Assembly: GCA_963707955.1 (NCBI GenBank)
Contig: OY970176.1
Location: 1,408,001-1,472,000 of the forward strand
DNA from: Candidatus Bathyarchaeota archaeon
GTDB taxonomy: Archaea > Thermoproteota > Bathyarchaeia > Bathyarchaeales > Bathycorpusculaceae
Reading direction: 5' to 3'
Length of the DNA: 64,000 nt
Shown: positions 7,408 to 11,947 of the stretch, piece by piece
Numbering within the stretch: position 1 is the first letter of the stretch
How the letters are laid out: the number at the start of each line of letters is the position of its first letter
Translations under genes and position numbers: made by a program
The notes under the pieces: generated by a model
Told to the model about the DNA's origin: nothing
Seen by the model: only the letters and a program-made list of their open reading frames with translations
Databases searched by the model: none

Positions 7408-7521
7408 ATGAGCAGGCGTAGACGGTTTGACAGACTTGAATGTCAGGGTTGCATTTACAAGGGTAGCACGTACTGCTGGAGACAGTGCCCGTATAACATC
7501 TGGAAGACGGAAGAATACTAG
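7408..7521 (+). CDS. 37-aa basic Cys4 microprotein (MSRRRRFDRLECQGCIYKGSTYCWRQCPYNIWKTEEY)
   Basis: Below the ORF-track cutoff; CxxC-x7-CxxxC pattern and Arg-rich start. Confidence 0.6.
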   Translation: MSRRRRFDRLECQGCIYKGSTYCWRQCPYNIWKTEEY

Positions 7522-7552
7522 ATCTCACGCTGAGCGAACGCAACGATTGAGA

Positions 7553-7645
7553 CTACTTCTTCAAGCGTTTCTCCTTGTGCTTTCTTCTTTTCTCTTCTCT
7601 TTCCTTTTTAGTCATTGGTTTCTTTTTAGTGCTTCCAGTGCTCAA
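7553..7645 (-). CDS. 30-aa Lys/Arg-rich microprotein (MSTGSTKKKPMTKKEREEKRRKHKEKRLKK)
   Basis: TTG start preceded by SD-like GGTGAT; strongly biased composition. Confidence 0.6.
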   Translation of the reverse strand: MSTGSTKKKPMTKKEREEKRRKHKEKRLKK

Positions 7646-7680
7646 TGCAATCACCACGCCTAAATAGTCAGAATAGGGAA

Positions 7681-7833
7681 TTAAGTTTCTGCGCGCGCTC
7701 TGGCTAATGCGCGTGCTTCTTCTTTTCTCCTTACTTTTTCAACGTTACTCTTTCCATGTTTCCATTTTCCTCGGCTTTTCATTCTTTTCAAAAATCGTTC
7801 TCTTTTCGCCTGCTTCTTCTCAGATCGTTTCAA
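7681..7833 (-). CDS. 50-aa Lys/Arg-rich microprotein (MKRSEKKQAKRERFLKRMKSRGKWKHGK...)
   Basis: TTG start with GGAGG upstream; co-oriented with the 30-aa basic ORF. Confidence 0.6.
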   Translation of the reverse strand: MKRSEKKQAKRERFLKRMKSRGKWKHGKSNVEKVRRKEEARALARARAET

Positions 7834-8093
7834 ACAAATCTTCCCTCCCAGAATCAAATAGTAACAACAAACAAGAACTATAACCTATCACCTAAATGCG
7901 AAGTGAATGCTGTGTCTGAAACCGGAATCTAGGATAAGGGAGCCGCGTGAAAACATCCTCAGGATGGCTCTGTTGTTTAATCGCTTTATAAGGGAGTATA
8001 CGTAGTATAGGACTGCGGCGTTCTGTTGTTGAAGGACGAGAAGAACACAGCAACGTTACAAGTTAAAATCAATGATGAAAGATGTGATGGAAA

Positions 8094-8381
8094 ATGGCGG
8101 AAAAATCGGCAATTGTTTTCATTGGAAGTAAAACACCAATGGACTATGTTCTAGCAGTTATCACCAGACTATCCGCGGGCGATGCTAAGGAAGTGATCTT
8201 GAAAGCACGAGGACGAGCAATCACAACAGCTGTTGACGTAGCTGAAATAACCAGAAATCGCTTCCTAAAAGACCTAAAAGTGAGCAAAATAGCTATCGGA
8301 ACAGAGGAGATGCCGGCAAGAGAAGGCGAAAACAGAGCAAGGATGGTTTCAACAATAGAAATAAGCCTTGCAAAAGAGTAG
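8094..8381 (+). CDS. albA: DNA/RNA-binding protein Alba
   Basis: [39 protein letters not shown] box at ~7985. Confidence 0.95.
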
Positions 8382-8451
8382 GAGAACCCTCAAGAAACAC
8401 ACGCGCAATTATAGTGAGGGACTATTAAGAAGCGGACAACGATAAAAACCA

Positions 8452-8547
8452 ATGAAGCTTGCTGTTCTGGTCTACGAGTATCCCCCAAAGATCGTCGGTG
8501 GCTTGGGAACCTACCCGGCTGAAATGACTCGCAAGTTTTATTCGTAG
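8452..8547 (+). pseudogene. N-terminal fragment of a GT4 glycosyltransferase
   Basis: MKLAVLVYEYPPKIVGGLGTY is a typical GT4 N-terminus; cut off at the tbp 3' end. Confidence 0.75.
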
Positions 8548-9101
8548 AATATGAGGTTTTGTTCTTCTAAGCTTGCGTGAAGCTTGTGCACTGCGTCATA
8601 AACGTCCTGTTCTTTCTTCGCTCCTGTGCAGACAAGGTTTCCGCTTGCGAATATCAGTATGACTACTTTAGGTTCGTCCATCCTGTAGATCAATCCTGGA
8701 AACTGCTCCGGTTCATACATGGTTTTTACAAGCTTGCTAACTGCCTGTTCCAAGTCTACTTTTCCGCCTAAGCTTACGGAGGCAACGATGTTCTGAATCT
8801 TCAACTCCGGTTTGCTGATGATGATTATTCCACTCTTTTTCAACTCTTTAACAACTGTCAATACAGCCCTGCGGGCTTCTTTTTCCGATTTCGCTCCCGT
8901 GCAAACCATTTTTCCAGAATTGAAAATCAGCGTGGCTGTCTTCGGTCGTTTGAGCCTATACACCAGTCCTGGAAACTGTTCTGGACGATATTCTACTCCT
9001 GGATTACTCTTCACGACAGCGTTTAAGTCGACTTTCTGGCTTAGTGTGGCAGAAGCAACAACGTTTTGAATGTGTACTATTGCTTTAGTCTTTGGCATCA
9101 A
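8538..9101 (-). CDS. tbp: TATA-box binding protein
   Basis: Two repeats of QN(V/I)VAS / PEQFPGL / LIFxSG..VCTGAK. Confidence 0.97.
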   Translation of the reverse strand: MMPKTKAIVHIQNVVASATLSQKVDLNAVVKSNPGVEYRPEQFPGLVYRLKRPKTATLIFNSGKMVCTGAKSEKEARRAVLTVVKELKKSGIIIISKPELKIQNIVASVSLGGKVDLEQAVSKLVKTMYEPEQFPGLIYRMDEPKVVILIFASGNLVCTGAKKEQDVYDAVHKLHASLEEQNLIFYE

Positions 9102-9111
9102 AAACCACTTC

Positions 9112-10459: not shown

Positions 10460-10600
10460 CTAATGAAGTTGATAGTTTATTTTTCCTTTTTCATTCACTT
10501 TAGATATGATTATGGTGAATTGTGCACCTTTGCCAGGAATGACATTTTCTTGTATGGTCCAACCGTAAAATTCCGTAATCTGGATCAGGTAAAGTCCGTA
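10460..10600 (-). pseudogene. C-terminal fragment of a sensor histidine kinase (HATPase_c)
   Basis: YGLYLIQITEFYGWTIQENVIPGKGAQFTIII covers the G2-G3 box region; begins 6 bp from a (GC)5 tract. Confidence 0.75.
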
Positions 10601-10684
10601 GTCTGAGCGCGCGCGCTAAATTGAAAAGGTGACAAAACTTCTATATATGTTAGGTGTCTAAGCTTGAACTAGCGGAGATCGAAT

Positions 10685-10909
10685 ATGAAACCTGAGCATT
10701 ATAAACCGATAAGGAAAGAAAAGCCCAAACGAAAGGGCAAGATTAGTGCGCGCAAGAGTCGAATGCTTGCAGAGGCTCAAGAATGGAAACCCATCACTTC
10801 TCCACAATTGCGTGAGGCTTACTCTGCTAAAATAGAATGGGTAAGGAAGCTAATTCCCAAATTGAAAAGAGAAGCAGAAGTGCCGGAAGAAAAAAAAGAG
10901 CTTAGATAA
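10685..10909 (+). CDS. basic hypothetical protein (74 aa)
   Basis: TATATA box at ~10642, GGAGA SD-like site, K/R-rich. Confidence 0.65.
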   Translation: MKPEHYKPIRKEKPKRKGKISARKSRMLAEAQEWKPITSPQLREAYSAKIEWVRKLIPKLKREAEVPEEKKELR

Positions 10910-11031
10910 GCGCACGCGCGCGCTTTTTACGTTTCGCTTAATTATCCTAATGTTGTTTATCCTAATGTTGTTCTTTTCCTAAGAACTATCGGAAGTACCA
11001 AATCGTGAATTACCATTCTGCTCATTTGAAA

Positions 11032-11259
11032 TCACTCCATCTTAACTTTAAGAATCCATTTTCCTTTAGGACTGCCGTCTAAATCGACTCCTCTGCCCTT
11101 TAACACTTTAAATTCGCCCTGTTTCAAACCTAAATTTTGCATGGCGAATTCTGTTGCTTGTTTAATCGTACAGAATCCAGCTGGTTTCTTTGCCTCAGTC
11201 TCTGTAAATCCCCATTCTGGCGGAACTAAACTGCCTATTTGCAAAACTTTTAATCTCAT
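11032..11259 (-). CDS. hypothetical protein (75 aa)
   Basis: ATG with GGAGG SD. Confidence 0.6.
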   Translation of the reverse strand: MRLKVLQIGSLVPPEWGFTETEAKKPAGFCTIKQATEFAMQNLGLKQGEFKVLKGRGVDLDGSPKGKWILKVKME

Positions 11260-11485
11260 TCCTCTTTAACCTCCTCAAGGGAAATAGCAGAACAGTCTAT
11301 GAATCGACAGTCTCGTCACTTCATGTCTTCGCTCCAGCTATTATAGAATGGAAATCGCTGTTAAAGCTTGCTTATCCCTTTAAGAAATCTTCTTCAAGCC
11401 AATTTTATGTATCAGAGAAAAATAGGGAAAGTTACGTTATAACCATTCTCCCAATCAATAATAACTCAACAATTTAGTAATAGAG

Positions 11486-11566
11486 TTACTTCTTTTCCTC
11501 TGGCTTTTTCTCTGCGGGTTTCTTTTCCTCTTTTTTCTCTTCCTTCTTCTTTCGCTTCAAGGGCAT
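11486..11566 (-). CDS. 26-aa Lys/Glu microprotein (MPLKRKKKEEKKEEKKPAEKKPEEKK)
   Basis: ATG preceded by strong SD GGGGTGAT; directly downstream of the Cren7-like gene. Confidence 0.65.
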   Translation of the reverse strand: MPLKRKKKEEKKEEKKPAEKKPEEKK

Positions 11567-11606
11567 GTCAATCACCCCCACTTAGTTTGTTATTGGCTCA
11601 TGGATG

Positions 11607-11777
11607 TCAGATCTTTTGTTTGCTCAACGCAACTCTAAATGGTTTCTTGCATTGTGAGCAATCGAAAAGACCGATCTCCATCTGCATCCTCTTGCCCGTT
11701 TTGTCAGGTCGACCAGCCATCGTCCATCTTTTCTTTGGCGAACTCACTTCGGTTCCACACTTTGGACATTTAGCCAT
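11607..11777 (-). CDS. Cren7-like chromatin protein with zinc ribbon
   Basis: MAKCPKCGTEVSSPKKRWTMAG...IGLFDCSQCKKPFR matches the Cren7 P.K.W...IGLF...K.FR pattern; GGAGG SD. Confidence 0.8.
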   Translation of the reverse strand: MAKCPKCGTEVSSPKKRWTMAGRPDKTGKRMQMEIGLFDCSQCKKPFRVALSKQKI

Positions 11778-11899
11778 AACGTTTCCTCCATTACCAGTCA
11801 TCATGTCGTTGTAAACCGAATGAATAAAGGGTTTATGATGCTTTTAGTCCGTTCTTGCTCTGTCATTCTTTCACTTTCCATTTCCGGTCGAGTTCTCAA

Positions 11900-11947
11900 T
11901 CATTTCTTTGTGTGCTTTTTCTTGCTCTTCTTTTTCTTCTTGCCCAA
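11900..11947 (-). CDS. 15-aa poly-Lys peptide (MGKKKKKSKKKHTKK)
   Basis: TTG with GGAGG SD and a TTTTATATA box ~60 bp upstream; very short, so uncertain. Confidence 0.45.
   Translation of the reverse strand: MGKKKKKSKKKHTKK

Follow-up and report, generated by a model that had tools for sequence, protein, structure and literature searches.

Micro-Protein Genes and Informational Paralogues in an Insertion of Shuffled Cassettes in a Bathyarchaeal Genome

Introduction

Small zinc-finger micro-proteins with the motif CPxCG occur in archaea, for example in Haloferax. Archaeal chromosomes also contain integrated elements with tyrosine recombinases, among them those with "suicidal" SSV-type integrases that are split on integration, as set out in a review by Badel et al. 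(2021, FEMS Microbiol Rev, PMC8371274). Forms of Cren7 that bear cysteines have already been described from Bathyarchaeota, together with a paralogous family, Cren7Znr, in a study by Kaur, Iyer, Subramanian and Aravind (2018, Sci Rep, PMC5906684). Here we compare with these systems a stretch of 64,000 nt from contig OY970176.1 of Candidatus Bathyarchaeota archaeon (assembly GCA_963707955.1). This whole stretch is called the window, and coordinates refer to it unless another genome position is given. The interval under study, 7408–11947, contains very short open reading frames (ORFs) for basic peptides, interleaved with genes for Alba, the TATA-binding protein (TBP), a protein resembling single-stranded DNA-binding protein (SSB) and a Cren7 homologue. 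An earlier interpretation made from the letters of the DNA, the sequence-only reading, had proposed that these genes form a module for nucleoid compaction or dormancy.

We find that the micro-genes are present in multiple copies and under purifying selection, and that the region is an insertion of shuffled cassettes. The interval, in our view, is likely to make up the left third of 13.4 kb of accessory DNA that is exchanged horizontally, a patchwork of cassettes that carries paralogues and micro-genes. In the following, G000 denotes the genome under study and G001–G010 the other genomes of its genus (congeners).

Results

The whole interval lies within a 13.4-kb insertion (6421–19856) that is specific to this genome at this locus. 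In G001 and G007 the sequence corresponding to position 6420 joins straight to that corresponding to 19855, which reveals an empty site (GAGT-TA-TTAACA); in G000 a TA stands on both sides of the insert. Six more congeners (G002, G003, G004, G005, G008, and G009) have the end of the L3 operon followed within ∼55–190 nt by sequence similar to 21130–21230. The 13.4-kb block is missing from this locus in all eight congeners examined, and homology to the ribosomal operon ends at 6420–6424 in nine of the 10 congeners searched, with no match in the last (G010). The cargo of the insertion also includes genes for TRAM, YhbY, CDC48 and RsmB, a second gene for ribosomal protein S17e and a DegT fragment. 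RNA genes were not found in the insertion by Rfam and ARAGORN.

The right border of the insertion is marked by an N-terminally truncated gene for a putative tyrosine recombinase (19233–19838, minus strand). BLASTP aligns this ORF to residues 113–328 of a 328-residue homologue, and tblastn extends the match back to residue 109 at position 19847. The homologues are 323–345 residues long, the homology begins 9 nt from the junction, and the fragment reads inward. The ORF itself has no Pfam match, and its full-length homologues score 16.5–26.6 bits with PF00589, below the cut-off of 27.1. Its neighbors in the Atlas are clusters named "integrase (fragment)" at 0.96, and one neighbor cluster carries PF16795. 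A search with six full-length homologues as queries (E ≤ 0.01) located the missing N-terminal part nowhere in the genome. Two copies of the recombinase with 37% identity lie at G000 2,101,317 and 2,107,301.

Like elements covered in the review (PMC8371274), this DNA is a strain-specific insert with a recombinase fragment at its very border reading inward. It differs from the suicidal integrases portrayed there because the Int(N) part and the att repeats are missing. Only Int(C) residues 109–328 are present, att direct repeats and a tRNA target are absent, and the junctions share only TA. The cargo is also unlike that of the elements reviewed (PMC8371274), since it consists of informational paralogues and not of plasmid or virus genes. 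A provirus carrying the terminase genes of this genome was considered and rejected; those genes lie far from the window.

Every segment of 7329–13774 recurs elsewhere in G000 with 71–100% identity and in permuted order. A sister island at G000 868.7–873.4 kb contains p30, p50, a frameshifted p37 and an inverted p74 (the micro-ORFs are named by their length in residues) alongside Alba, TBP and the OB-fold gene. Pieces of the island occur in each of the 11 genomes of the genus, and contigs from four sediment, wetland and soil runs show the modules joined in yet other orders. The association of the micro-genes with Alba, TBP, SSB and Cren7 noted in the sequence-only reading is real inasmuch as they recur together, in the sister island and as p50 with Alba, but the cassettes shuffle independently: p50 and Alba are divergent neighbors in five of the 11 copies of p50 and are not adjacent in the other six. 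A conserved functional unit is not what we observe, since the interval sits inside an insertion missing in eight of eight congeners, consists of shuffled cassettes and includes a fragment of a DegT gene.

The modules are 85–96% identical to their counterparts in G009, G004, G003, and G006, as compared to 74–79% for the ribosomal operon. By genome, the cassettes reach 85–96% in G009 (ribosomal operon, 75%), 85–91% in G004 (74%), and 88–92% in G003 (79%). As the cassettes are far more alike than the ribosomal operon, these identities indicate exchange between species.

Short alternating (CG)n tracts accompany the cassettes. They occur at 7329–35, 7691–98, 10075–81, 10607–16, 10915–23, 12094–102, 13017–24, 13595–602, 15970–79, 17431–40, and 19846–54, and their density is 1.4 per kb in the insertion versus 0.49 genome-wide. 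Across the genome the sequence GCGCGCGC was counted 464 times against 25 expected, an approximately 18-fold excess. Its counts are high throughout the genus (29–464 in each of the 11 genomes) and low (0–14) in 26 of the 30 other relatives. Among 1,874 ends of intragenomic repeats, 14% lie at most 5 nt from a (GC)3+ tract versus 3.5% of random crude-intergenic positions, and 25 repeated segments are bounded by tracts on both sides. The cassettes of p74, YhbY, and p37 are flanked by tracts in several genomes, and the DNA past the tract is unrelated. A 585-bp stretch with the YhbY/CRM gene (13017–13601) is 100% identical to G000 715,099–715,683, with (CG)4 on both sides of both copies.

Part of the (CG)n signal comes from a family of miniature inverted-repeat transposable elements (MITEs). 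This family comprises at least 21 copies of 134–317 bp with inverted terminal repeats that start with GCGCGC; two of these copies lie in the window (30966–31262 and 60833–61149), along with a solo end at 12174–12197. A family member of 1,080 bp (G000 389080–390159) encodes a split IS4/IS5-type DDE transposase (DUF772 and DDE_Tnp_1), and the MITEs have their terminal repeats in common with this copy (42 forward and 39 reverse ends, 21 short pairs). The MITE family is derived from IS4/IS5, an assignment that applies to the MITEs and not to the cassettes. About 81 of 1,151 tracts continue into a MITE terminal repeat. The insert resembles IS4/IS5 MITEs in having TA on both flanks and (CG)4 at its end. 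The cassettes differ from these MITEs in that bare (CG)n tracts, not full terminal repeats, form their boundaries.

Integron cassettes offer another comparison. They too are small, mostly single-gene units that are shuffled among arrays and share a short palindromic border sequence. Unlike integron cassettes, those of the island are of mixed orientation and come with their own promoters and Shine–Dalgarno (SD) sites; neither an attC-like imperfect hairpin nor IntI was seen, although no search was aimed at IntI. A literature search on mobile islands of Bathyarchaeia and on GCGCGC-linked recombination in archaea returned nothing relevant, which is not proof of absence.

We then consider whether the micro-ORFs are genes. 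Copies were collected with tblastn and blastn from the genome and from fetched loci, and selection was judged in all six frames by the codon position of variable columns and by a Nei–Gojobori count of nonsynonymous and synonymous differences (pN/pS). For the 37-residue p37 (7408–7521, plus strand), a Cys4 peptide with the motif F..EC..C..K...YCW.QC..N.WK, we found 10 distinct copies with identities down to 68%. The variable columns are distributed 13/12/30 over the three codon positions, and pN/pS is 0.17. The other frames give values of 0.8–1.9, the exception, at 0.22, being the antisense frame with the same third positions, where 29 stops occur. Cys12, Cys15, Cys23, and Cys27 are invariant across eight aligned intact copies; one further copy in G000 is frameshifted. 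Judged by these substitutions p37 is a real gene, and we infer that the four cysteines would bind a metal.

Like the zinc-finger micro-proteins of the Haloferax type, p37 is shorter than 40 residues and has two Cys pairs and a basic tail. Unlike them it has the motif EC..C / YCW.QC instead of CPxCG, and no sequence relation was found in Pfam, NCBIfam, or the PDB. When 1.84 billion cluster representatives were searched with a profile of p37, 52 matched at E ≤ 0.001, and for 14 of these the E value was no higher than 1e-10. In these representatives the motif is always C-terminal, and some have longer N-terminal parts. Pfam, NCBIfam, and PHROG contain no relative, the profile search against the PDB gave chance-level rows only, and the Atlas returned only unnamed clusters with scores below 0.9. 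The database representative P0146 carries the p37 motif at its end, behind an N-terminal part that by eye looks like a DNA methyltransferase. Relatives of p37 also occur on three IMG/VR contigs, in one case at a distance of 1.7 kb from the gene for a terminase large subunit, in another next to a type I restriction–modification system (L098:421–525 and L098:2187–3623; L097:5001–5111).

The K/R/E-rich p30 (7553–7645, minus strand) starts with TTG behind GGTGAT, and a 34-residue form with a GTG start would extend to 7657. Its 16 copies show 10/11/29 variable columns and a pN/pS of 0.15, or 0.10 over the 30-residue part. The longer form is unlikely because one copy has a 1-nt insertion upstream of the TTG and another has lost the upstream start. 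From this pattern p30 also qualifies as a real gene, with an uncertain N-terminus (20–34 residues).

Just upstream on the same strand lies the K/R-rich p50 (7681–7833), and the two ORFs are probably on one transcript. The 11 copies of p50 (or its 58-residue form) contain no internal stops and one in-frame deletion of 9 nt, and pN/pS is 0.32. The third-position excess among the variable columns (14/12/21) is not significant. The antisense frame has an equal pN/pS, but contains stops and lacks a start in the window. A 1-nt insertion upstream of the TTG in one copy favors the 50-residue start over the 58-residue start. We found 32 homologues of p50 among 5.8 billion clusters, all at least 66% identical; 31 are without a Pfam domain, and several share the start call of the window. 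Neither a profile search of viral contigs, which found no relative, nor one of the PDB, with chance-level rows only, connected p50 to other proteins. In sum, p50 is probably a real gene. Copies of p50 have three alternative C-termini, which diverge at a (CG)n tract within the last ten codons (7681–7712). A predicted complex of an Alba dimer with p50 scored 0.00, a value that was obtained without controls and weighs neither way.

The case for the remaining ORFs is different. The basic p74 (10685–10909, plus strand) forms a cassette with (CG)n tracts on both flanks. Six full copies show 14/18/16 variable columns and a pN/pS of 0.56, which is not separable from the other frames; three copies have a stop at codon 62, and one copy is frameshifted. 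The ORF is conserved with little sign of selection and may be a fourth micro-protein gene. The K/E-rich p26 (11486–11566, minus strand), counted together with a 31-residue form, has three copies with 3/5/7 variable columns and a pN/pS of 0.25, too few changes to judge. The poly-Lys p15 (11903–11947, minus strand) has no second copy in the genome or the fetched loci and none upstream of 17 other Cren7 genes; as a gene it is unsupported. Pfam and NCBIfam gave no match for p37, p30/34, p50/58, p26/31, p74, or a 75-residue ORF at 11032–11259.

The sequence-only reading had listed five micro-ORFs overlooked by gene calling. Their recurrence, preserved frames and pN/pS values argue that p37 and p30 are real and that p50 probably is, while p15 is unsupported and p26 is known from three copies only. 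The frames of p37, p30, and p50 are preserved, and almost every copy retains its stop codon and SD site. At other Cren7 loci p15 and p26 have no counterparts. The same reading was accurate about the SD sites on four of the ORFs (GGTGAT before p30, GGGAGG before p50, GGGGGTGAT before p26, and GGAGG before p15) and about a strong TATA-like box, TTTTTTATATATG, at 12002–14 on the minus strand. All ORFs that it listed are present where it placed them, and its names for the Alba, TBP, SSB-like, and Cren7-like genes are borne out by family scores, an OB domain, and the Cren7 fold and homologues.

Of these larger genes, the Alba paralogue (8094–8381, plus strand) matches its family over the full length and above the curated cut-offs (TIGR00285, 107.5 bits versus 88.25; PF01918, 64.4 versus 25) and represents one of five Alba loci in the genome. 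The TBP paralogue (8538–9101, minus strand, 187 residues) scores 209 bits with PF00352 in two tandem repeats and narrowly misses the equivalog cut-offs of NCBIfam (252 versus 270). It is one of four TBP loci; its lineage is confined to the genus and invariably comes with the OB-fold gene, which lies 10–13 nt upstream. The "alternative TBP" of the sequence-only reading is confirmed as an extra TBP paralogue (PF00352), probably a member of a shuffled gene pool rather than a fixed regulator. The SSB-like OB-fold protein (9112–9774, minus strand, 220 residues) matches PF21473 in residues 135–212 only (38.3 bits versus 24). Its N-terminal 110 residues have no family match in Pfam or NCBIfam, and the best SSB model of NCBIfam scores 75.9 against a cut-off of 188, so that the canonical SSB equivalog is not reached. 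The genome has six SSB-like loci.

The Cren7 homologue (11607–11777, minus strand) is a zinc-ribbon form of 56 residues with four cysteines. It has the conserved start MAKCPKCG, a GGAGG ahead of it, and its own T/A-rich box ∼50 nt upstream. The family is present in 39 of 41 related genomes, with six matches in G000. Among 152 database homologues many carry a precomputed PF11520 assignment, and NCBI gives one of them the name "chromatin protein Cren7". For the window protein itself, PF11520 was not among the best 25 of 33–36 Pfam families, and its profile matched Cren7 among PDB sequences at E 0.39. An AlphaFold2 model based on 29 sequences reached a mean pLDDT (predicted local distance difference test) of 93.0. 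The top eight Foldseek matches of this model in the PDB are all Cren7 (probability 0.98–1.00, TM score 0.59–0.66, identity 33–35%, E 0.1–0.4), none of which reaches E 0.001.

Like the zinc-ribbon forms in the Cren7 study (PMC5906684), the window protein has about 56 residues, Cys pairs at two knuckles, and a fold that matches Cren7 structures. Some of its homologues have lost the fourth Cys, as described in the same study (PMC5906684). Relatives also contain a tandem Cren7 paralogue with a C-terminal extension that may correspond to Cren7Znr as outlined there (PMC5906684). The Cren7-like call is correct and the form already known, so nothing here is new in kind; the window copy is an island-borne paralogue. 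This copy is closer to proteins of other genera (77–84% identity) than to those of congeners (72–77%), which hints at transfer or at an old paralogue that only this genome has retained.

A gene order on one strand, Cren7a, Cren7b, S26 signal peptidase, primary TBP, is conserved in other genera of the family and order, as seen at loci L067, L076–L079, L081, L083, L084, and L087. The linkage of TBP and Cren7 is an old one within the order. The second Cren7 paralogue takes the place of the 26-residue ORF at seven of 17 other Cren7 loci. We considered p26 as a remnant of Cren7b and rejected the idea, as tblastn found none there. The proposed unit of p15, Cren7, and p26 is absent at all 17 of these loci.

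Further features complete the picture. A fragment of a DegT/DnrJ/EryC1 aminotransferase gene (10162–10389, plus strand) covers only positions 24–74 of the 360 of the PF01041 profile. The 75-residue ORF (minus strand) has a strong SD site, GAGGAGGT, and one 96%-identical copy in G009. A 31-residue ORF at 8452–8547 overlaps the 3′ end of the TBP gene; it has about eight copies in the genome, four of them at 90% identity, and no Pfam match. The second S17e gene of the insertion (18704–18952, minus strand) is 67% identical to the other copy at G000 1,703,343, and duplicated markers of this kind may explain the 5.8% "contamination" estimate for the assembly. Of 30 bins, 26 are covered by contigs from an RNA library, among them the bins of p37, p30, and p26, which is not evidence of transcription; the little or no contig cover of bins 10198–10519 and 11808–12100 carries no meaning.

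Discussion

According to the explanation that we favor, 13.4 kb of accessory DNA would have been inserted recently into the gap that separates the rpl3 ribosomal-protein operon from the next conserved gene. The insert would be built from short, mostly single-gene cassettes, which also occur at further sites of the genome and in congeners, among different neighbors and in different orders, and whose homology would end at the short alternating (CG)n tracts. Two kinds of cargo can be proposed. The first would be extra paralogues of informational and nucleic-acid-binding proteins, namely Alba, the pair of TBP and OB-fold protein, zinc-Cren7, TRAM, YhbY, S17e, CDC48, and RsmB. The second would be micro-protein genes restricted to the lineage, at least three in number: p37, p50 and, behind p50, p30, with p74 as a possible fourth. 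The micro-proteins would travel with chromatin and transcription paralogues in one mobile gene pool and would not constitute a dedicated pathway.

The (CG)n tracts may be joints for recombination, or they may simply be signals at gene ends that stay with their gene. We tentatively propose, as a possibility that we hold with considerable doubt, that they are joints which turn single genes into exchangeable cassettes of a promoter-carrying, integron-like pool. The agent could be an IS5-like transposase acting through GCGCGC repeats or, alternatively, breakage of DNA prone to the Z form. Such a pool would spread paralogues of chromatin, transcription, and translation proteins together with p37, p50, and p30, which would modulate them.

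Several observations speak against a mobile pool of micro-genes and paralogues. The insert contains no intact recombinase or transposase, it is flanked by no long direct repeats but only by TA, and no tRNA gene lies near it. PHROG returned nothing meaningful for ten island proteins. The assembly is repeat-rich (5.7% of bases). The coincidence of tracts and borders could reflect gene-end signals that stay with each gene. As for the micro-proteins, the coding evidence for p50 is weaker than that for p37 and p30, the AlphaFold2 model of p37 is poor (pLDDT 64.7) despite an alignment of 37 rows, and the idea that these proteins (pI 9–12) would bind DNA or RNA is drawn from charge alone. Finally, because the cargo resembles housekeeping paralogues of the host, endogenous segmental duplication could explain part of the pattern.

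One alternative is that the small basic proteins associate with RNA or ribosomes, in the manner of small ribosomal or hibernation proteins, and travel with translation paralogues. The island does lie beside the rpl3 operon and carries paralogues of S17e, YhbY/CRM, TRAM, and RsmB, and Alba also binds RNA. On the other hand, p37, p30/34, p50/58, and p26/31 match no ribosomal-protein model in NCBIfam or Pfam, and the profiles of p50 and p37 match no chain of a solved ribosome in the PDB. Moreover, the families are confined to close relatives and occur in multiple copies, unlike core ribosomal proteins. We regard this explanation as unlikely.

The dedicated module of the sequence-only reading, in which condensation and silencing of the chromosome would fall to protamine- or histone-tail-like peptides working with Alba, Cren7, and an alternative TBP, appears quite unlikely to us. 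The peptides are indeed strongly basic (pI 10.9–11.7), and the micro-genes recur beside Alba, TBP, SSB-like, and Cren7 genes at several loci, with p50 and Alba divergent in five of 11 copies and an ancient linkage of TBP and Cren7 in the order. These co-occurrences of micro-genes with Alba, TBP, and SSB are not independent observations, however, because they are segmental copies. The island arrived at this locus recently, its cassettes move independently, with six of 11 p50 copies lacking Alba, and the 15- and 26-residue ORFs that frame Cren7 are not conserved. The neighbors also include genes for RNA binding and translation (TRAM, YhbY, S17e, and RsmB). Nor are the peptides protamine-like, being rich in Lys and Glu instead of showing runs of Arg. 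Basic (K+R) and acidic residues number 15, mostly Lys, and 4 of 30 in p30, 13 and 7 of 26 in p26, and 21 and 6 of 50 in p50, so that none of the three has the Arg-dominated runs and few acidic residues of protamines and histone tails.

Segmental duplication and gene conversion within one chromosome could in principle produce such an island without any mobile element, or the island could be an assembly chimera made by repeats. The host-like cargo, the sister island at 868–873 kb, the 585 bp that are 100% identical to the copy at 715 kb, and the lack of an intact recombinase in the insert all speak for such an origin. We nevertheless consider it improbable in either form, since similarity between species is much greater for the cassettes than for the ribosomal operon, a recombinase fragment marks the border, the left junction lies in unique sequence, and contigs of independent studies carry the same cassettes in other orders.

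The idea that the purine-rich runs are not genes but complements of T-rich terminators or untranslated leaders draws on p30 and p50 being antisense to the T-rich stretch after the convergent p37 gene, yet it is very improbable in view of the concentration of variable columns on third positions (30 of 55 in p37, 29 of 50 in p30), pN/pS values of 0.10–0.17, the survival of stop codons and SD sites in almost every copy, and a p50 frame that survives a 9-nt deletion. For the 15-residue ORF, which is unique, and the 26-residue ORF, with too few substitutions to judge, the same idea is the more likely reading.

Conclusions

If the proposed mobile pool is real, three well-supported micro-protein families of 20–50 residues would be added to an archaeal lineage with almost no experimental biology. 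Genes of such size are often missed or given wrong starts by gene callers. As its relatives fall into 52 sequence clusters and include parts of larger fusion proteins as well as members on virus-like contigs, p37 would offer a tractable new Cys4 domain. The spare copies of TBP, Alba, Cren7, and OB-fold proteins would then represent a shuffled, horizontally exchanged pool rather than fixed regulators, in which case counts of "alternative TBP" in such genomes would need rereading, and duplicated markers would explain apparent "contamination". The (CG)n tracts, 18-fold over-represented, specific to the genus, and coincident with cassette borders, would provide a concrete and testable lead to the recombination mechanism.

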